A stretch of DNA of 64,000 nucleotides, taken from the NCBI GenBank assembly GCA_033764445.1, contig JANRIZ010000058.1, forward strand, positions 178-64,177. The letters are read 5' to 3'. Position 1 is the first letter of the stretch, and each line of letters opens with the position of its first letter. This stretch comes from Verrucomicrobiia bacterium. GTDB lineage: Bacteria; Verrucomicrobiota; Verrucomicrobiia; JAWXBN01. Positions 1 through 26,366 of this stretch are shown one piece after another. The notes under the pieces are model-generated. The model searched no databases. It had not been told where the DNA came from and saw only the letters and a list, made by a program, of their open reading frames with translations. The translations under genes and the position numbers were made by a program.

Positions 1-140
1 CCTTCGGCGCGGGGATCGGTTCCAAGGTGCTCATTTCCAGCGACGGCGCGGAGTCCCGCAAACTGGTCGGCAGCGAACTGTCCCCGATCCGCTGGAACGT
101 TCTGGGAATCCTTGACGATGGAGTCAACAACACCCTATGA
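1..140 (+). CDS. EutN/CcmL-family microcompartment vertex protein (BMC-P), 5'-truncated by the window edge
   Basis: Frame 3 reads FGAGIGSKVLISSDGAESRKLVGSELSPIRWNVLGILDDGVNNTL*; GAGxG..V and terminal xGIxD pattern of BMC-P; its stop overlaps the next ATG (ATGA, 137-140). Confidence 0.75.
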   Translation, partial: FGAGIGSKVLISSDGAESRKLVGSELSPIRWNVLGILDDGVNNTL

Positions 141-430
141 GATTTGGCAAAGTCATCGGACGCGTCGTCCTCTCCCAGAAACATCCCAGCTACGTGGGGG
201 AACGCCTGCTGCTGACCCTGCCCTGGAAAACCGGGGCCTTTGAGGGACGCCATGACCACGATTTTGGCATTGTCGTGTACGATGAACTCGGCGGAAGTCC
301 GGGGGATCTGATCGCCATCAGCGAAGGACGGGAGGCGGCCTGCCCGTTTGATCCGCCGCGCCCTGTGGATGCCTACAACGCCGCCCTCATCGACGATTTC
401 TTCTATCAATCCCCCAAGACCGGCAAGTAG
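137..430 (+). CDS. EutN/CcmL-family microcompartment vertex protein (BMC-P)
   Basis: 97 aa; MRFGKVIGRVVLSQKHPSYVGERLL...VVYDELGGSPGDLIAISEGREAA..PVDAYNAALID matches the EutN/CcmL pattern. Confidence 0.88.
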   Translation: MRFGKVIGRVVLSQKHPSYVGERLLLTLPWKTGAFEGRHDHDFGIVVYDELGGSPGDLIAISEGREAACPFDPPRPVDAYNAALIDDFFYQSPKTGK

Positions 431-445
431 CAAAGGAAACACCCC

Positions 446-1483
446 ATGAAACTCTTCACACAAAAAGACGCTGAAACCTTCATCCACTCCGGAGCCAGGG
501 AATTCGCCCTGACCCCCGGCACGATCCTGACCCCCGGCGCCAAGGACGCCTTTTCCGAGGCGCGGGTGCGTGTGGTGACCTCCACCGGGTCCTCCTCTCC
601 GGCCCCGGCCTCCCCTGTCTCGGGGGGAACCAACAGGATTGAAGCCCTGTTCAACTCCCCGGAAGCCCAGCAGGTCAAACTCGATATCTGCGAGATCGGC
701 CGCCGTCTGTGGCAGCGGGAATTTGTCGACGGCAACGGGGGGAACATCTCCTACCGCATCGGCCCCAACGAGGTCCTGTGCACCCCCACACTGGTCAGCA
801 AGGGGTTCATCAAACCCGAGATGATCTGCATGGTCGATCTGGAAGGCAACCAGATTGCGGGCTCCTCCAAACGCACCAGCGAAATCACCACACACCTGGC
901 CCTTTACAAGGGCAATGCCACCGCCAAGGCGGTGGTCCATGCCCATCCGGTCCATGCCACGGCCTTTGCCATCGCGGGCATTGAACCCCCGGCCTGTCTG
1001 ATTCCCGAATACGAGGTGTTTGTCGGACGCGCTCCGCTGGCTCCGTACAAAACACCCGGAAGCAGGGAAATGGCGGAGATCATCCAACCGCTGGCCGCGC
1101 AGCATCAGTCCATCCTGATGGGCAACCACGGGGTCATCTGCTGGGGCAGTTCGGTGGAGGACGCCCATTGGAAGATGGAAATCACCGACGCCTATTGCCG
1201 CACTTTGCTCCTGGCAATGCCGCTCAAGGGCAACGCCACCATTCCCGACAACGAGGTGGGCAAATTGATCGAGCTGCGCAACAAACTGGGAATGCCCGAT
1301 CCCCGTTCGGGTCTCAAACCGGTGGAACTGTGCGAGATCGATCCGTGGGAAGTGCTTCGCGGCAAAGCCAGCAGTTGCGGATGCAAAACCGGGGCGACCG
1401 GGGACTCCTCCGGGACGGACCCCGACGACAAAACGGTCCAGCAGATCACCGACCAGATATACAGGGCCCTCGGCGGCAAATAA
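446..1483 (+). CDS. Class II aldolase (fuculose/rhamnulose-phosphate aldolase-like), PV-BMC signature enzyme
   Basis: GNGGNIS, TSE..HL, VHAHP and GNHG motifs; C-terminal helix DDKTVQQITDQIYRALG resembles an encapsulation peptide; lies in a BMC locus. Confidence 0.88.
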   Translation: MKLFTQKDAETFIHSGAREFALTPGTILTPGAKDAFSEARVRVVTSTGSSSPAPASPVSGGTNRIEALFNSPEAQQVKLDICEIGRRLWQREFVDGNGGNISYRIGPNEVLCTPTLVSKGFIKPEMICMVDLEGNQIAGSSKRTSEITTHLALYKGNATAKAVVHAHPVHATAFAIAGIEPPACLIPEYEVFVGRAPLAPYKTPGSREMAEIIQPLAAQHQSILMGNHGVICWGSSVEDAHWKMEITDAYCRTLLLAMPLKGNATIPDNEVGKLIELRNKLGMPDPRSGLKPVELCEIDPWEVLRGKASSCGCKTGATGDSSGTDPDDKTVQQITDQIYRALGGK

Positions 1484-1522: not shown

Positions 1523-2455
1523 ATGAGTCTCAAAGTCGGAATCATCGGGGGAGGCGGACGTGTGGGAAGCTGCGCGGCCTTCGCGCTCCAATGTGGCGGC
1601 ATTGTCCGCGAAATCGCCCTGCTCGACGCCAACGCGGCCACCGCAGAAGGGGAAGCCCTCGACCTTCTGCACGGTGCGGCCTACACGGCGGACCAGAAAA
1701 TCCATGCCTGTGACTACCCCTCCATCGCCCAATGCGACATGATCGTCATCACGGCGGGACTGCGCCGCAAACCCGATGAATCCCGTCTGGACCTCATCAA
1801 CCGCAACGTCACACTGTTCCTCCAGATTCTCGACAGCCTCCGCACGGCGGGTCTGCGCCGCGAGGCCTTCATCTTTGTGGTCAGCAACCCGGTGGATATC
1901 CTCACCCACATGGCCATGCAACGTCTGGGACTGCCCGAAAACCAGGTGTTCGGACTGGGCACCATGCTCGATACGTCACGCTTCTGCTCCCTGATCGCCG
2001 CCGAACTCCATCTCCCGCCCACCCAGGTGCGGGCCATGATCCTGGGCGAACATGGCGACTCCATGCTGCCGGTGTGGTCCAGTGCCACAGTGGACGGATT
2101 TGACCTCAACAAATTCCCGGGCATGAATCCCGGGCTCCAGAACAAACTCTTTGAACGCACCAAAGGCAGCGGGGCGGAGGTCATCTCGCGCAAGGGCGGG
2201 GCGGGCTGGGCCGTGGGCATCGCCATCAAGGAGGTCGTCGAGGCGGTGGCTTTGGACCGCAGGCGCATCCTGCCCGTCTCGAGCCTGATCCGCGGCGAGT
2301 ACGGCATCCGGGACATCAGTCTCTCCGTGCCCACCGTCGTCGGCAGAAACGGCATTGAAAAACGGATCGAACTCGAACTCTGGCCCAAGGAACTGACCGC
2401 CCTGCAGGCCTCCGCCAAGGCCCTCAAGGAAACCCTGGCCAAGGTCAAGGCGTGA
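1523..2455 (+). CDS. Lactate/malate dehydrogenase family protein (BMC-associated)
   Basis: GIIGGGGRVG Rossmann motif, TAGLRRKPDESRLDL, VSNPVD, LDTSR, GEHGDS. Confidence 0.9.
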   Translation: MSLKVGIIGGGGRVGSCAAFALQCGGIVREIALLDANAATAEGEALDLLHGAAYTADQKIHACDYPSIAQCDMIVITAGLRRKPDESRLDLINRNVTLFLQILDSLRTAGLRREAFIFVVSNPVDILTHMAMQRLGLPENQVFGLGTMLDTSRFCSLIAAELHLPPTQVRAMILGEHGDSMLPVWSSATVDGFDLNKFPGMNPGLQNKLFERTKGSGAEVISRKGGAGWAVGIAIKEVVEAVALDRRRILPVSSLIRGEYGIRDISLSVPTVVGRNGIEKRIELELWPKELTALQASAKALKETLAKVKA

Positions 2456-2458
2456 AAC

Positions 2459-2494
2459 AAATGTCTAATGTCTATCGACTAATGACTCATGTTT
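2459..2494. repeat. Left heptamer tract (aatgtct aatgtct atcgact aatgact catgttt), left arm of an inverted repeat
   Basis: Read directly; aaatgtctaat (2459-2469) is the exact reverse complement of attagacattt (2936-2946). Confidence 0.85.
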
Positions 2495-2519
2495 AAAAAC
2501 CCACGCATGATTCAAAGGC

Positions 2520-2900
2520 ATGAAAACGCAAAAATTCGATCTTGAAGAACGCACGGCCATTTTTGGAGAAAATGTGATTAAATTTGCGAAAAATGTTAAA
2601 CCAAATCCCGTCAACACTCCGCTGATCAACCAAGTGGTGCGTTCAGCTACCAGCGTGGGGGCGAACTATTGTGAGGCGGATGATGCTTCATCAAAAAAGG
2701 ATTTTATCCATAAGATCGGTCTGTGTCGAAAGGAAGCCCGCGAAACGAAACATTGGCTGCGAATGCTGGCGATTGCGGAAACCAATTCAAGGGACGAACT
2801 GGCCCAGCTCTGGCAGGAAGCCAAAGAATTACATTTAATCTTTGCATCGATTGTCAGAAATGGTCGAGAAAACATGTGCATCGAAACCCTCAAAACATGA
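2520..2900 (+). CDS. Four-helix-bundle protein (23S rRNA IVP / TIGR02436-like)
   Basis: 126 aa; DLEERT..F, QVVRSATSVGANYCEADDASSKKDFIHKIGLCRKEARETKHWL; AT-richer than its neighbours. Confidence 0.9.
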   Translation: MKTQKFDLEERTAIFGENVIKFAKNVKPNPVNTPLINQVVRSATSVGANYCEADDASSKKDFIHKIGLCRKEARETKHWLRMLAIAETNSRDELAQLWQEAKELHLIFASIVRNGRENMCIETLKT

Positions 2901-2910
2901 CACTCTCTGA

Positions 2911-2946
2911 AGTTTTTAGTCATTAGAAATTACAAATTAGACATTT
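2911..2946. repeat. Right heptamer tract (agttttt agtcatt agaaatt acaaatt agacatt), right arm of the inverted repeat
   Basis: Units agtcatt and agacatt are reverse complements of left units aatgact and aatgtct, with the same 21-nt offset. Confidence 0.85.
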
Positions 2947-2957
2947 TTACCCCCCTT

Positions 2958-4220
2958 ATGCAAAAATCCCTCGACACCAAACTGGCGGAAATCCGGTCCA
3001 ACCCCGGCCGGGCCAAATCCTTCATCATTGCCGACGCGAAGGATGCCGACATGGCCTTCGGCATCACCGCCCCGGGACCCAAACCCAATCAGAGTCCCGA
3101 GGCCTTCTCCAGCGGGGAACTGCATTTCAAAACTCTGCCGGAGTACCAGCAGCAGATTCGTGACGTGATCAAGCAGGGACTGGTGGACATCCTCCTGGCC
3201 TCCGCCTCCAATATCGAGCAGCTCTCCATCAAGGAGGGGCTCTTCAAAAACTCCCACCTCACCCCCGCCGCCCGGGCCAACGACGCGACGGATATCTGGG
3301 TCATCCGTCACGGCTCCTACATCCAACAACCCTCCCAACCCTTCCGCTCGGCCTCCATCGACCACATCCAATGCGGCAAACTGGAGTGTGAAGAGGGCGA
3401 AATCACGGGGGCCAATCTGGGCCTTTACTCGGTGACCTTCACCAACGATCTCGACCGCGACAAACGTTCCCTGTGCGCCTTCAAGGACTTCCGCGAGGAA
3501 GCCGAACTCAAGGGGTTCAAATATTTCCTGGAAGTCTTCGACCCGAACGTGAAGACCGGCATCTCCGACGACAAGATCGGACACTTCATCAACGACCACA
3601 TCGTGCGGAGCCTGGCGGGCGTGACCCAGCGCGGACGTCCGGAATTCCTCAAAATCGTCTATCACGGCCCGAAGGCCATGGAGGAACTCTGCGCGTATGA
3701 TCCCTCACTGGTGGTGGGCATTCTCGGCGGCGGTGCGGGCACCACCTACGACGCCTTCAAACTGATCAGTGAGGCCCAGAAATACGGTGCGCGTGTGGCC
3801 CTCTTTGGCCGCAAGATCAACATGGCCGAACATCAGCTGGCCTTCATCCAATTCCTCCGTTACATCGTCGAGGGGTCGATCACCCCGGAGGACGCGGTCA
3901 AGGCCTATCACGGCGTCCTGCAGGGCTTGAATATCAGACCCCATCGCAGTTTGCAGGAGGATCTGACCCTTCAAACGGGGGTGATGAGTTACGGCGGATC
4001 CACGACCGTGGCCGTTCCCGCGGGAACCCCCCGTTCCACGTCCGTCTCCAAACCCTCCGTTCCGGCCCCTTCACCTTCCAAAATCGCGGGCAATCTGGGA
4101 GGAAACATCGCCGTGCCCAACCGCAACGCCCTCCCCACTCCGACAACGGATTCCAAAACCAACACCTCCCGCGTCGAGGAGCAGCTTCGTCGTCTGAAAA
4201 AAAAGCTGGGCGACATCTAG
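2958..4220 (+). CDS. Conserved hypothetical protein, probable class I aldolase-like TIM barrel with Pro/Ser/Thr linker and C-terminal helix
   Basis: FLEVF, FLKIVY, GILGGG and ALFGRKI motifs recall DeoC/LacD-type barrels; co-oriented with the BMC genes. Confidence 0.6.
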   Translation: MQKSLDTKLAEIRSNPGRAKSFIIADAKDADMAFGITAPGPKPNQSPEAFSSGELHFKTLPEYQQQIRDVIKQGLVDILLASASNIEQLSIKEGLFKNSHLTPAARANDATDIWVIRHGSYIQQPSQPFRSASIDHIQCGKLECEEGEITGANLGLYSVTFTNDLDRDKRSLCAFKDFREEAELKGFKYFLEVFDPNVKTGISDDKIGHFINDHIVRSLAGVTQRGRPEFLKIVYHGPKAMEELCAYDPSLVVGILGGGAGTTYDAFKLISEAQKYGARVALFGRKINMAEHQLAFIQFLRYIVEGSITPEDAVKAYHGVLQGLNIRPHRSLQEDLTLQTGVMSYGGSTTVAVPAGTPRSTSVSKPSVPAPSPSKIAGNLGGNIAVPNRNALPTPTTDSKTNTSRVEEQLRRLKKKLGDI

Positions 4221-11366: not shown

Positions 11367-11468
11367 TCGGTTGCCGGTTCTCGGTTGCCGGTTGAATTCG
11401 TTGGGTGTGCAGAATGTTTCCGGTTCCAAATCTCAAAAAATATCCGTGTGATCCGTGATATCCGCGGT
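11367..11468. repeat. Orphan 7-mer tract (tcggttg ccggttc tcggttg ccggttg) and 9-mer tract (atccgtgtg atccgtgat atccgcggt)
   Basis: Read directly at 11367-11394 and 11442-11468 in the rnr-mqnC gap. Confidence 0.7.
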
Positions 11469-22536: not shown

Positions 22537-25500
22537 TCAAAAGGATTCCAAAAGTTTTATCAGTTCCAGCAGCTTATCTTTGGCTTTCTCACCAGTCAAT
22601 CGCGGAAAACGGCCCCCCACCATCACAAAATCAGACCTCTTTTTGGCCACCACCTTTCCCTCCTTGACCTCCAGCTCCACCAACCCCTTCTGGGAACTGA
22701 GGATTTTCACCTCTGTCAGCAAAAGCAGGAGATCCATCGCCGGAGGCATTTTCCCATACCGGTCCCGCCATTGAACCCGCAACACCTCGAGTTCCTCCCG
22801 ATTGGAGGCCTCCGCCAAACGCCGGTAGGCGGCCACACGCTCGGCGGTCTGGTCCATGTACCGTCTCGGAATCCAGGCCGGCTCCCTCGGCGCCCCATCT
22901 GAATTTCCCTCCCCTGCCCCATGGTGTTTGCCCTGTTCTTGGCATGAGGCTCCCTCCTTTGGAATCTGGAATTTGGAATCTGGCATTTCATACTCCGTGG
23001 TGCTCAGAAAATCCAGCCTCACGGAAACCTCCCGCCTCAGCGGGGCCCGCTCGCCCTTGAGCTGCGCAATGGTGGCCTTGAGGAGGTGACAGTACAGATC
23101 GAAACCGATGGCGGAAATGTGTCCGCTCTGCTCGGTGCCCAGAATGTTCCCGGCCCCGCGAATCTCCAGGTCCCGCATCGCGATCTTGAACCCGGCCCCC
23201 AGCTGGCTGTACTGCTTGATGGCACTGACCCTCTTGCGCGCATTTTGCTGAAGCATCAGGTGGCGGGGCAGAAGCAGATACGCGTAGGCCTTGTGATCGG
23301 ACCGGCCGACTCTCCCCCGCAGCTGGTACAGGTCGGCCAGACCGAACCGGTCGGCACGGTCGATGATCATGGTGTTGGCATTGGGGATGTCCAGTCCGCT
23401 TTCGATGATGGTGGTGCTGATGAGCACATCGGACCGGCCCCCGATGAAATGGGCCATGACCGTTTCCAGCTCCTCCTCATCCATCTGTCCGTGGCCGACA
23501 TCGACCTTCGCCCGGGGCACCAGTTCCTTGATCCGGTCCCGGACCTTCAAAATGGATTCCACCCGGTTGTGCAGAAAATAGACCTGGCCATTCCGGGCCA
23601 GTTCCCGCTCGATGGCCGACCGGATCAGCCGCTCATCATATGCGGCCACGACGGTTTCCACGGGGACGCGGTTGCGCGGCGGGGTTTCAATCAGGCTCAT
23701 GTCCCGCGCGCCGGAAAGTGACAGGTACAGGGTCCGCGGAATGGGGGTGGCCGAGAGGGTCATCATGTCCACGAGGCGGAACCGTTCCTTGAACTTTTCC
23801 TTCTGCCTGACGCCGAACCGCTGTTCCTCGTCGACGACCACCAGTCCGAGGTCCTTGAACTTCACGTCGCCGGAAATGAGCCGGTGGGTGCCGACCACGA
23901 CATCGGCCTGCCCGCCGACCAGGGCGGCCAGGGTCTCCTTTTGCTGACGCGCACTGCGATAGCGGTTGAGCACCTCCACGCGGAGCGGATAGTCGGCGAA
24001 CCGTTCCACCAATGTCCGGTAATGCTGCTGGGCCAGGACGGTGGTGGGGGCGAGCAGGGCGGCCTGTTTGCCCTCCATCACACATTTGAAAATCGCCCGG
24101 ATGGCCACCTCGGTCTTGCCAAACCCCACATCCCCACACACGAGCCGGTCCATGGGGCGGAGCGATTCCATGTCCCGTTTTGTCTCAATGATCGCCCGTT
24201 CCTGATCGGGGGTTTCCTCGTACAGGAACGAATCCTCAAACTCGCGCATCCACTTGCCGTCGGTCCCGAAGGCATGACCCCGGTCGGTCTCCCGCTGGGC
24301 ATGGATTTTCAAAAGCTGCGCGGCGTAGTCCATCACAGAACGCTGCGCGGAGGTCCGCGCCCGCTCCCATCGGGTGCCCCCCAGGACATCGAGGGCGGGG
24401 GAACGCCGGCCCACTCCGACGTATTTGGTCACCAGATACGCCTGTTCCAGCGGGACAAACAGCCGCGCATTCTCGGCAAAAATCACCACCAGCACCTCCT
24501 CCTCCCGTCCGTCCACGGGCATCTTTTGCAGGCCGCCATACAGACCGATGCCGTGCTGGAGATGCACAACGGTGTCGCCCTCCTGCAATTCGCTGAAGTC
24601 CAGGGCCGAACTGTGTGCCCGCAGTTTGGTCAGCCGCTCCTCCCGACGGAGCCGACGCACGGTCTGGTACCGTCCGAAAATCTCGGAATCGGTCAGAACA
24701 ACCTGCCTCCCGGCGGGAAACACAAACCCGTGCAGGACGGAGGCCACCTCAAAATGCACATTGACCCATCCCTTGCCGGAGTGTGTGGATTTCTGATTTT
24801 CGTTTTCTGATTCTGGATCGTTGTTTGGAATTTGGAATTTGGAATCCGGAATCCTGAACACCCCGGCCTCCTCCAGGATTTCCGAAAGTCTCCGCAATTC
24901 GCCTTCGTTGTTCCCAAAAAGATGGATGGTCCACCCTTCCCCGCACCATTGGCGGAATTGTTCCAGGAACACCGCCCGGCGTCTCTCCTGCACCACAATG
25001 TCCCCGGCGCCTTCGGCCTGGAAATCATGTCCGAAAAAATGATGGACGCCCTCCTCGACCGGATCCCCATGGGCGCTGGCTTCAAAATGCTCGTCCTCCC
25101 CGCCCACCCCCAGGGCGGCGGATATCAGGGGTTGCCCGGAAAGAAACACGGGGCCACGGATTTTCCTTTCCGCAATCCGCACCTGCCCCTCAAAATCAAT
25201 CTCCCCCACCTCATCAACGACCAGCAGGGTCCCCTCGGGCAGATAGTCGAGCAGCGTGGCCACGGCCTGCCCGGGGGCATCACTGAGAACGCTCAACAGG
25301 TGTGTCTCGCGGATCTCCCGTGCGGAAATCTGGGTGTCCACATCAAATTCCCGGATGGATTCGATGTAGTCCCCATCGAATTCCAGACGGACCGGATTCA
25401 CGGCGTTGTAGGGGAAGACATCCAGAATCCCGCCACGGCGGGCGATCTGCCCATGCAGCCCCGCGCGGGTGACGGCTTCATATCCGCCCGCCACCAGGCA

Positions 25501-26189: not shown

Positions 26190-26219
26190 GTTGAGCGTGC
26201 GGCGTTGTGAGTTGAGCGT
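26190..26219. repeat. Heptamer tract gttgagc gtgcggc gttgtga gttgagc, inverted relative to the caacgcc tract at 26238-26272
   Basis: Read directly. Confidence 0.6.
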
Positions 26220-26237
26220 GCGAAAATCAATTCTCGG

Positions 26238-26366
26238 AACGCCCAACGCCCAACCCTGAACACTCAACGCAACACGGGCGGCATCCGCCTTCGCCGAGGC
26301 TTCGGCCTGAAAGACCCAATCTCTGCGGGTATCAGGCGACAGGGCGGCGGCGTGGCCGTTCGCCCT
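26238..26366. repeat. ~130-bp structured direct repeat, copy 1
   Basis: aacgcccaacgcccaaccctgaacactcaacgcaacacgggcggcatccgccttcgccgaggcttcggcctgaaagaccc...gacagggcggcggcgtggccgttcgccct; near-identical to 27247-27380. Confidence 0.9.

Follow-up and report, generated by a model that had tools for sequence, protein, structure and literature searches.

The question that this locus raises is what a gene-bearing hairpin is doing in the spacer of a bacterial microcompartment operon. Within the 64,000-nt stretch analysed here (the window; contig JANRIZ010000058.1 of a Verrucomicrobiia bacterium, assembly GCA_033764445.1), a segment of ~490 bp at positions 2459–2946 separates ldh from the next gene of the operon, and its one open reading frame (ORF) encodes a four-helix-bundle protein of the family PF05635, enclosed by inverted arrays of tandem heptamers. 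The original prediction, made from the letters alone, had offered a mobile cassette without a transposase or an intervening sequence acting at the level of the mRNA. We conclude, with a rough probability of 0.6, that the segment is a copy of a widespread, horizontally moving hairpin cassette of the 23S rRNA intervening-sequence type, lodged in the spacer of an mRNA operon. That it belongs to the class of such hairpin cassettes we hold with high confidence, and that the cassette is horizontally mobile is, on comparative evidence, very likely; identity and mobility are well supported, and the reader of the arms and the mechanism are what we infer.

The 5' arm of the insert begins 3 nt after the ldh stop codon, the 3' arm ends 11 nt before the start codon of a gene for a 420-aa protein (2958–4220), and the cargo gene starts 26 nt past the 5' arm. 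GC content is 0.42–0.50 across 2401–3000 against 0.60–0.65 on both sides, and coordinates and composition alike bear out the predicted AT-richer cassette between ldh and the next microcompartment-linked gene. Each arm consists of five heptamers, the 3' unit (GnCATTn) being the complement of the 5' unit (nAATGnC); Tandem Repeats Finder reports period 7 in both, and both reach at least 16 of 21 self-matches at a lag of 7 nt. Together they form an inverted repeat of 29 nt at 79% complementarity (2459–2487 with 2918–2946), or a longer pair of 34 nt at 71%, and contain an exact 11-bp pair (2459–2469 with 2936–2946) and an exact 9-bp pair (2479–2487 with 2918–2926) that share one register, their coordinate sums both being 5405; the repeat search agrees here with the original prediction. 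The RNA duplex of the two 46-nt flanks has a predicted energy of −22.8 kcal/mol; 500 dinucleotide-shuffled versions of the 3' flank all fall short of it (mean −10.1, standard deviation 3.0), and the arm-to-arm score of 14 is reached by none of 198 cross-locus flank pairs. The terminal inverted repeats close the ORF into a loop, and the terminal stem is present in the minimum-energy fold of 2450–2955, as had been expected; the supposed imperfect stem of ~35 bp resolves into three helices of 11, 9 and 6 bp, split by a 9 × 9 internal loop and a bulge. As a whole, the segment 2450–2955 folds no better than shuffles (z = −1.11; 15 of 100 shuffles as stable). Five heptamer units (2459–2493) precede the start of the S23p gene in tandem, as they do in Coxiella. 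The cassette sits between two protein-coding genes and not in a 23S rRNA helix, and Rfam at gathering scores gave no matches, hence no rRNA, in the window and four loci.

The cargo protein matches PF05635 with E = 1.4e-14 (54.6 bits against a cut-off of 33.8) and the solved structure 2RLD with E = 5.7e-15, and it keeps all six invariant columns of a 52-sequence family alignment. Its AlphaFold model (predicted local distance difference test score 94.6) places four helices at residues 8–25, 33–54, 59–86 and 88–125, an up-down bundle like that of the solved PF05635 members, and Foldseek aligns the model with 2RLD (template modelling scores 0.73/0.84), 2GSC (0.74/0.82) and Avd, the accessory protein of diversity-generating retroelements (4DWL, 0.66/0.74; also Avd inside the retroelement ribonucleoprotein 8UB7). 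The kinship with rRNA intervening-sequence proteins and with Avd that had been claimed is in this way confirmed by sequence and fold; the sequence likeness to Avd is weak, PF22296 (bAvd) scoring below its cut-off even for a sister-clade copy. By analogy with 2GSC, whose title names five four-helix bundles, and with 2RLD, which has five chains, the window protein may assemble into a homopentameric ring. The family is large: 8,077 clusters at 50% identity match the window protein at E ≤ 0.001.

Orthologous junctions give the first argument for mobility. In G003, from a sister genus in the same order (labels beginning with G and L denote genomes and loci of our comparison sets), ldh and the next gene are ~37 nt apart, i.e. 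the site is empty. Among 80 metagenome loci (out of at least 539, with junction coordinates extrapolated from tblastn), ldh stands directly upstream of the orthologue of the downstream gene in 35, with a spacer of at most 45 nt in 24 of these, and a hidden Markov model built from another alignment of the family finds a PF05635 gene at the junction in none of the 80. Counting these 35 loci together with G001, G002, G003 and G012, the cargo gene is absent from all 39 other ldh-linked junctions examined. Orthologues of the 420-aa downstream gene were found in 12 of 40 relatives, and metagenome stretches with one number at least 539; the exact 30-nt end of ldh has no match in the metagenome contigs. 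Comparison with these loci shows the cassette to be inserted into a junction that is normally 0–45 nt long. The nearest relatives of the cargo in the class, at 65–68% identity, belong to other families, with nothing above 43% in its own.

The same design recurs across the family. PF05635 is present in 112 of 151 genomes of the class, from which we took a sample of 33 loci (30 top-scoring loci from 30 genomes, mostly one per genome, and the source genome's own three copies) and scored an array wherever at least 16 of 21 positions self-matched at lag 7 inside 130 nt of the gene. Arrays lie upstream of 23 genes, downstream of 15, on either side of 27 and on both sides of 11; control lags of 4–6 and 8–13 yield at most 1 of 33, and lag 14, the harmonic of 7, yields 20 of 33 on either side. 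Inverted flank-to-flank scores of at least 12 occur in 19 of the 33 loci; cross-locus pairs reach this level in 2 of 198 cases, and the direct orientation does so in 5 of 33. The original prediction had anticipated such an enrichment of inverted heptamer flanks among paralogues and relatives. With the gene not vertically conserved at its position and the flanks of its relatives enriched, the proposal of a foreign cassette without a transposase stands.

Closer relatives extend this picture far beyond the class. A search of one genome per species returned at least 576 relatives of the window protein, of which the best 80 (58–72% identity) come from genomes labelled Verrucomicrobiota, Lentisphaerae, Planctomycetota, Chloroflexota and Gammaproteobacteria and, in many cases, Patescibacteria; sequence comparison places these nearest relatives at unrelated loci, spread over six or more phyla. 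We kept the 76 intact loci of the 80, dropping L067, L080, L125 and L127 (cut flank or ORF below 100 aa). Lag-7 scores of at least 14 are found upstream of 43, downstream of 58, on either side of 64 and on both sides of 37. The motif AAT[GT]NC occurs on the sense strand 3.21 times per 130 nt upstream of the 76 genes and its complement 3.78 times downstream, against 0.33 and 0.37 for the opposite orientations and 0.33 in control windows. Plasmids of cultured strains carry the design too: in Nostoc flagelliforme an annotated four-helix-bundle coding sequence lies between (ATTCAAA)4 and (TTTGAAT)4, and the Anabaena cylindrica PCC 7122 plasmid pANACY.01 (L222, 1000–1780) holds a four-helix-bundle cassette with AGTAAAA / TTTTACT arrays. 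This last cassette separates cas2 from cas1, both of which are on the other strand. Among 50,697 phage records there were two partial matches only.

Arms of one cassette belong to each other, and arm units go with protein clades. In 59 of 76 loci the two arms of a cassette score higher with each other than with at least 9 of 10 arms taken from other cassettes of the subfamily (median score 18 against 10). Of 41 loci with a callable unit in both arms, 33 have a 5' unit that differs by no more than one base from the complement of the 3' unit; among cross pairs this holds for 320 of 1640. Unit distance averages 2.08 at protein identities of at least 55% and 3.65 below 25%. MFNFEKL-type proteins go with GTTGAGA, M.RQPAKSF-type proteins with CAGGAGT in two different gene contexts, and MQDYHKL-type proteins with TCAGCNG; these last occupy one orthologous site in three genera, across which the unit has drifted but the period has not. 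A single clade with a single unit is found in two gene contexts (L026, L029 and L043 against L035 and L037).

Several observations weigh against the cassette reading. All support for it is comparative in nature. Target-site duplications do not emerge, since flanking-match lengths in 73 cassettes resemble those of the cross-locus control (3-nt matches number 16 against 8.7 expected, none consistent), and the cargo has no known recombinase or nuclease identity. The source genome holds three PF05635 genes with heptamer arrays near all three, of which only the window copy has a clean inverted pair: the C163 paralogue is non-canonical, with (AGATTCC)12 and its inverted partner both downstream and a flank-to-flank score of 5.5, and so is the C62 paralogue, whose weak ATTGCCN arrays score 11 and fall under the lag threshold. 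The 70 period-7 arrays of that genome form 48 clusters, against three PF05635 genes. Among the 151 genomes, a strict three-unit array of the cassette's type is missing in 6 of 14 with a close relative and present in 16 of 137 without one. Array presence is also a weaker signal than our first control suggested: that control, all 130-nt windows of the loci (2–3% positive), was too easy because most such windows are coding, and we replaced it by intergenic gaps of 40 nt or more elsewhere in these loci, where 7 of 36 and 3 of 20 pass the lag-7 threshold of 16. By this measure the enrichment at cassette flanks is about 2–4 fold only. The number of units per arm (median 4.4 upstream, 3.7 downstream) is a figure biased by the detection threshold, and the link between clade and unit would also be expected from plain co-inheritance of a unit that moves whole. 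Some of the array-positive control gaps are themselves gene-less hairpins with the cassette's unit (L071, L083). Heptamer arrays are a general feature of spacers in genomes that carry PF05635 genes, and cassettes stand out not by having an array but by having two, oriented and complementary to each other, around the gene. A stronger argument than the clade-unit link lies in the non-coding hexamer core, which is found unchanged, in tandem copies, across phyla at 58–72% protein identity.

We propose that the inverted heptamer arrays are the ends of the element and would be recognised at the DNA level, a preference over recognition as RNA that we place only a little above even on the comparative data. 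The most likely reader would be the ring-forming protein that the cassette encodes, with about one heptamer per protomer; that the arms are in fact read by the cassette's own protein is possible, at somewhat less than even odds. For such repeated reading of structured nucleic acid by a ring with this fold there is a precedent in Avd: in the ribonucleoprotein of a diversity-generating retroelement, five Avd protomers are reported all to touch one RNA stem-loop through flipped-out bases (bioRxiv 10.1101/2023.10.23.563531). Copying into new spacers would rely on a host or trans-acting activity. The cassette contains no transposase, the four-helix-bundle gene being its sole ORF, and the two weak Y1_Tnp matches in the source genome lie within long ORFs that are not linked to it.

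Expression would come by read-through from the host operon. In 2300–3100 we found no intrinsic terminators (shuffles yield 1.5) and two promoter-like matches at consensus level only; having no promoter or terminator of its own, the cargo gene must be read from the operon. Such read-through would account for the predominance of sense copies: a crude rule based on the longest frame finds neighbours co-oriented with the cargo gene in 61 of 72 cases on the upstream side and in 63 of 71 on the downstream side.

A gene-bearing master copy may further have given rise to non-autonomous, gene-less offspring. The genome G080 holds gene-less hairpins of the cassette's unit, with 75 pattern hits against two gene copies, and strict unit arrays are found in 8 of the 14 genomes that hold a close relative, as opposed to 16 of the 137 that do not (Fisher p = 2e-4, kin not being independent). 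Given this pattern of gene-bearing master and gene-less offspring, the encoded protein is a natural candidate for reading the arms. One such G080 hairpin (L136, G080:C91:9950–10500, at ~210–325) is a gene-less GAATGNC / CGTCATT hairpin inside an unbroken open frame of 183 codons, whose protein has no Pfam match. In-frame palindromic elements of Rickettsia are comparable to this hairpin within an open frame.

An alternative that we consider unlikely is that the arms serve for pairing within the operon transcript, where RNase III would cut the stem as it does in 23S rRNA intervening sequences, freeing the cargo mRNA, insulating the neighbouring cistrons or setting translation of the protein, with mobility secondary. 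The terminal stem in the minimum-energy fold and the arm duplex beyond the reach of all 500 shuffles fit this idea, as do the sense orientation of most copies inside operons and the cuts by RNase III that have been mapped in the stem of the Coxiella rRNA copy, where they remove the ribosome-binding site (PMC4990558). In many close relatives (L048–L127), moreover, the start codon lies within the last 5' heptamers, where AATGACnAATGA is read M-T-N-D/E, so that MTNE or MTND opens the protein. If a sense-strand RNA helix were under selection, however, arm mismatches should show an excess of G-U over A-C, and none is seen (63 against 78 in 75 cassettes, 33 against 36 in 23), which argues against selection for an RNA stem; this symmetry across 98 cassettes speaks against the mRNA-level half of the original prediction and suits ends that are read, or produced, as DNA. 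The fold of the whole segment, which does not exceed shuffles, points the same way, and pairing alone would explain neither the tandem 7-nt units nor the clade-specific unit. RNase III itself was not found through PF14622 or PF00636 in the source assembly (2.74 Mb, 178 contigs, 89.6% complete), but is present in all three near relatives (G001–G003). On the cassette reading, the arms can pair in the transcript as well, and in rRNA copies such pairing lets RNase III excise the insert; in mRNA operons it would be a side effect that makes the insertion tolerable and not the selected function.

The wider repeat content of the genome bears on a second alternative. Cyanobacterial short tandemly repeated heptamers go by the name STRR, and the source genome shows an intergenic 7-nt excess of that kind, with 70 period-7 arrays against 12, 13, 13 and 7 at periods 8, 10, 11 and 13; the arrays fall into about five unit families sharing nAAYnnn. 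The protein could be imagined as a trans-acting regulator that binds scattered heptamer arrays, as RNA or DNA, on behalf of the host (in termination, translation or spacer protection, for example), the arrays at its own gene being autoregulatory. Arrays do outnumber genes by 70 to three and sit immediately ahead of start codons or behind stop codons. Of the three commonest array families, two have a unit that also makes up the arms of a resident paralogue (TAATGNC in the window cassette, GGAATCT in C163), and a translational role has been suggested for the heptamer direct repeats abundant between genes of Beggiatoaceae, Cyanobacteria and Bacteroidetes (PMC4679880). We nevertheless rate this as quite improbable: patchy spread, 58–72% identity across phyla and empty sites make the pattern of a selfish element, and the CAACCGG, CAACGCN and GAACAGT families have no clear resident partner, although in an incomplete assembly partners could be missing. 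About 13 TAATGNC arrays lie elsewhere in the genome, several of them in a composite repeat with a tandem period of 108 nt and not in hairpins.

The orphan heptamer tracts of the window, which had been suggested as footprints of the cassette, are not: the four carry units other than the cassette's (CGGTTGC, GGAATCT, GGAATTT and GTTGAGC; Table 1). Gene-less hairpins with the window cassette's unit do occur in other genomes.

More improbable still is a mere coincidence, in which the arrays are STRR-like products of slippage in spacers and small foreign genes land beside them with no functional tie. Arrays do occupy 15–19% of the other intergenic gaps of the same loci (up to 33% at a laxer threshold), they adjoin toxin-antitoxin genes (PIN, HicA, Unstab_antitox) in the source genome, and partnerless single arrays stand at the ldh junction in L205, L215 and L218. 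This reading is already disfavoured by one unit in one orientation around one subfamily in at least six phyla (3.21 and 3.78 motifs against 0.33 and 0.37 in the opposite orientation), by own arms that match each other better than foreign arms, and by the recurrence of a single clade with its unit in two gene contexts (L026/L029/L043 and L035/L037).

Finally, the proposal that the gene is the Avd of a degenerate or partial diversity-generating retroelement, or else a dedicated component of the microcompartment operon, is the least probable of all, for although the fold resembles Avd (4DWL, and Avd in 8UB7) and a PF05635 gene of another clade lies in a like operon in G022, the source genome, at 89.6% completeness, has no match to the reverse transcriptase family PF00078, a search for a template/variable repeat pair found no direct repeat longer than 16 nt within 2400–3000, and the gene occurs at none of the 39 other ldh-linked junctions. 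The G022 copy (L137, G022:C7:38000–41800, 2046–2459 on the minus strand) is a CAGGAGT-type gene between the aldehyde dehydrogenase and eutN genes; being of a different clade and at a different junction in another family's microcompartment operon, it is an independent insertion.

How the cassette relates to systems already described can be stated in terms of four comparisons. The closest is with the ORF-bearing 23S rRNA intervening sequences of Coxiella, Leptospira and others, which share S23p / PF05635 cargo, a sense ORF in the loop of a stem and a length of ~430–490 nt. In Coxiella burnetii the helix 45 intervening sequence has a 28-bp inverted-repeat stem with mapped RNase III cuts, and tandem GACAGAT heptamers precede the S23p start in a copy number that differs among strains (PMC4990558). 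The window copy differs in lying between protein genes of an operon, not in an rRNA helix, and the accessible intervening-sequence literature treats heptamers as a local detail of one species and not as paired, clade-specific arms. With Avd, itself a pentameric, positively charged barrel, the cargo shares the four-helix-bundle fold; a reverse transcriptase was not found in the genome, nor were template and variable repeats within 2400–3000.

The third comparison is with STRR and the TAACTGA repeats of Beggiatoaceae, Cyanobacteria and Bacteroidetes, which are likewise intergenic tandem heptamers of 2–12 units with several unit families per genome, and whose function is described as unexplained, with horizontal spread suspected (PMC4679880). 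Those are direct repeats with no linked gene, whereas here an inverted pair surrounds a specific gene; the terms 'four helix', 'S23' and 'intervening' have no occurrences in the accessible text of that paper. The fourth is with miniature inverted-repeat transposable elements and repetitive extragenic palindromes, which resemble the cassette in their inverted ends, intergenic sites and short gene-less derivatives that multiply in some genomes (here G080), a further trait of this kind being a hairpin at the ldh junction (L217) that holds a fragment of an IS200-like Y1 transposase. The cassette departs from them, and from terminal-inverted-repeat transposons, in that target-site duplications and an encoded or cognate transposase were not found, its ends are tandem arrays and not unique sequences, and its full-length form carries no known transposase. 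Known already are the rRNA intervening sequences and the heptamers of the Coxiella copy, mentioned in a paper of 2016; new are the paired arrays around the family outside rRNA. We found no paper, supplements aside, that connects inverted heptamer arrays with PF05635 genes located outside rRNA.

No function has been described for the very large family PF05635, and for decades the tandem heptamers of bacterial spacers have lacked an explanation; should the two go together, each gains a testable function, as a ring protein and its repeat array. A far broader generalization, which we regard as unlikely on present evidence, would make PF05635 proteins sequence-specific readers of tandem heptamers, each protomer of the ring taking one unit, and, together with inverted arrays, a new class of transposase-free mobile element that spreads at the DNA level and includes the rRNA intervening sequences. 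These last would then be a special case of a cassette that colonises ordinary operons, gene-less offspring would explain much of the heptamer load (STRR, TAACTGA) of cyanobacterial, Bacteroidota, Planctomycetota, Verrucomicrobiota and candidate-phyla genomes, and a sister class would consist of PD-(D/E)XK (GxxExxY) genes between inverted arrays of 9–10-mers. For the annotation of the source genome, the consequence of the cassette reading is that the PF05635 gene is an insert and stands outside the microcompartment pathway.

Table 1. Features of the window, with other sequences that occupy the ldh junction in related loci
Feature	Position	Strand	Basis or remark
EutN/CcmL vertex protein gene	137–430	+	Pfam; microcompartment operon context
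Class II aldolase gene	446–1483	+	Pfam; microcompartment operon context
ldh, lactate/malate dehydrogenase, host gene upstream of insert	1523–2455	+	Pfam (Ldh_1_N 2e-34, Ldh_1_C 5e-31)
5' arm, five heptamers AAATGTC TAATGTC TATCGAC TAATGAC TCATGTT, unit nAATGnC	2459–2493	+	sequence
Cargo gene, 126-aa PF05635 four-helix-bundle protein (S23p / 23S rRNA intervening-sequence protein)	2520–2900	+	Pfam
3' arm, five heptamers GTTTTTA GTCATTA GAAATTA CAAATTA GACATTT, unit GnCATTn	2912–2946	+	sequence
Host gene downstream of insert, 420-aa protein with no Pfam match	2958–4220	+	conserved in microcompartment loci
Orphan array, unit CGGTTGC	11367–11395		at gene end
Orphan array, unit GGAATCT	22956–22989		at gene end; arm unit of the C163 paralogue
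Orphan array, unit GGAATTT	24816–24861		at gene end
Orphan short hairpin, GTTGAGC / GCTCAAC	~26190–26275		at gene end
ldh junction filler	L178		gene-less (CGAAATC)n hairpin
ldh junction filler	L217 (600–1600)		(CGAAATC)n arms as in L178; loop with IS200-like Y1 transposase fragment (PF01797, 5.9e-11)
ldh junction filler	L183 (500–1600)		PD-(D/E)XK 'GxxExxY' gene (PF13366, 5e-38) amid CACAAAG-type repeats
ldh junction filler	L205, L215, L218		single arrays with no partner
ldh junction filler	G012		gene-less, 15-nt inverted repeat at 93%
ldh junction filler	G001, G002		small membrane-like ORFs, AT-rich, without Pfam family or terminal inverted repeat

The ldh junction is a repeatedly used landing place (Table 1) and may help the study of how such cassettes choose their sites. 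We considered the inserts of G001 and G002 as copies of the window cassette and rejected them, as they show no tblastn match to it, no Pfam family and no terminal inverted repeat. The G002 insert ends in ATTAGTCATTAGGAATT, a remnant of a 3' arm of the window-cassette kind, and starts with CGCAGATG-type decamers, the arm type of PD-(D/E)XK cassettes. The Y1 transposase in L217 is frameshifted and bounded by its own GC-rich palindromes. In a sister genus (L005, 2760–3300; L006, 2750–3300), the junction is occupied by an AT-rich gene whose product, at ~140 aa, is small and hydrophobic and has no Pfam family; both proteins start MDE.K and are elsewhere very divergent.

In the composite repeat of the source genome, the TAATGNC array is joined to GCGCGACGTCCAGCGGATT and CACAAAAAGGCGCAAAAATGCACAAGG-like words. 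Copies lie at G000:C154:9650–10070, C154:5600–5700, C42:2620–2755 and C109:3900–3990, C154 having three in tandem 108 nt apart; Rfam gave no match for the C154 and C109 copies, the C42 copy not having been searched. Orphan arrays of this genome often adjoin AT-richer toxin-antitoxin genes identified by Pfam (PIN twice, HicA, a HicB-like gene and Unstab_antitox twice), at G000:C109:3041–3698, C8:14905–15375, C73:24222–24515, C62:8973–9188 and C154:10263–10481.

Genes of the PD-(D/E)XK 'GxxExxY' family PF13366 are packaged in a similar way with longer units. One of them (G000:C126; L226, ~1296–1801 on the plus strand, ~1440–1945 in the reverse complement) lies between a histidine kinase and a response regulator gene within inverted CACAAAG-type 9-mers, and another (G000:C102; L227, ~1400–1930) has inverted GCACAGATGR decamers. 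Judged by sequence, these packages look like a sister class of the hairpin cassette with a putative nuclease as cargo.

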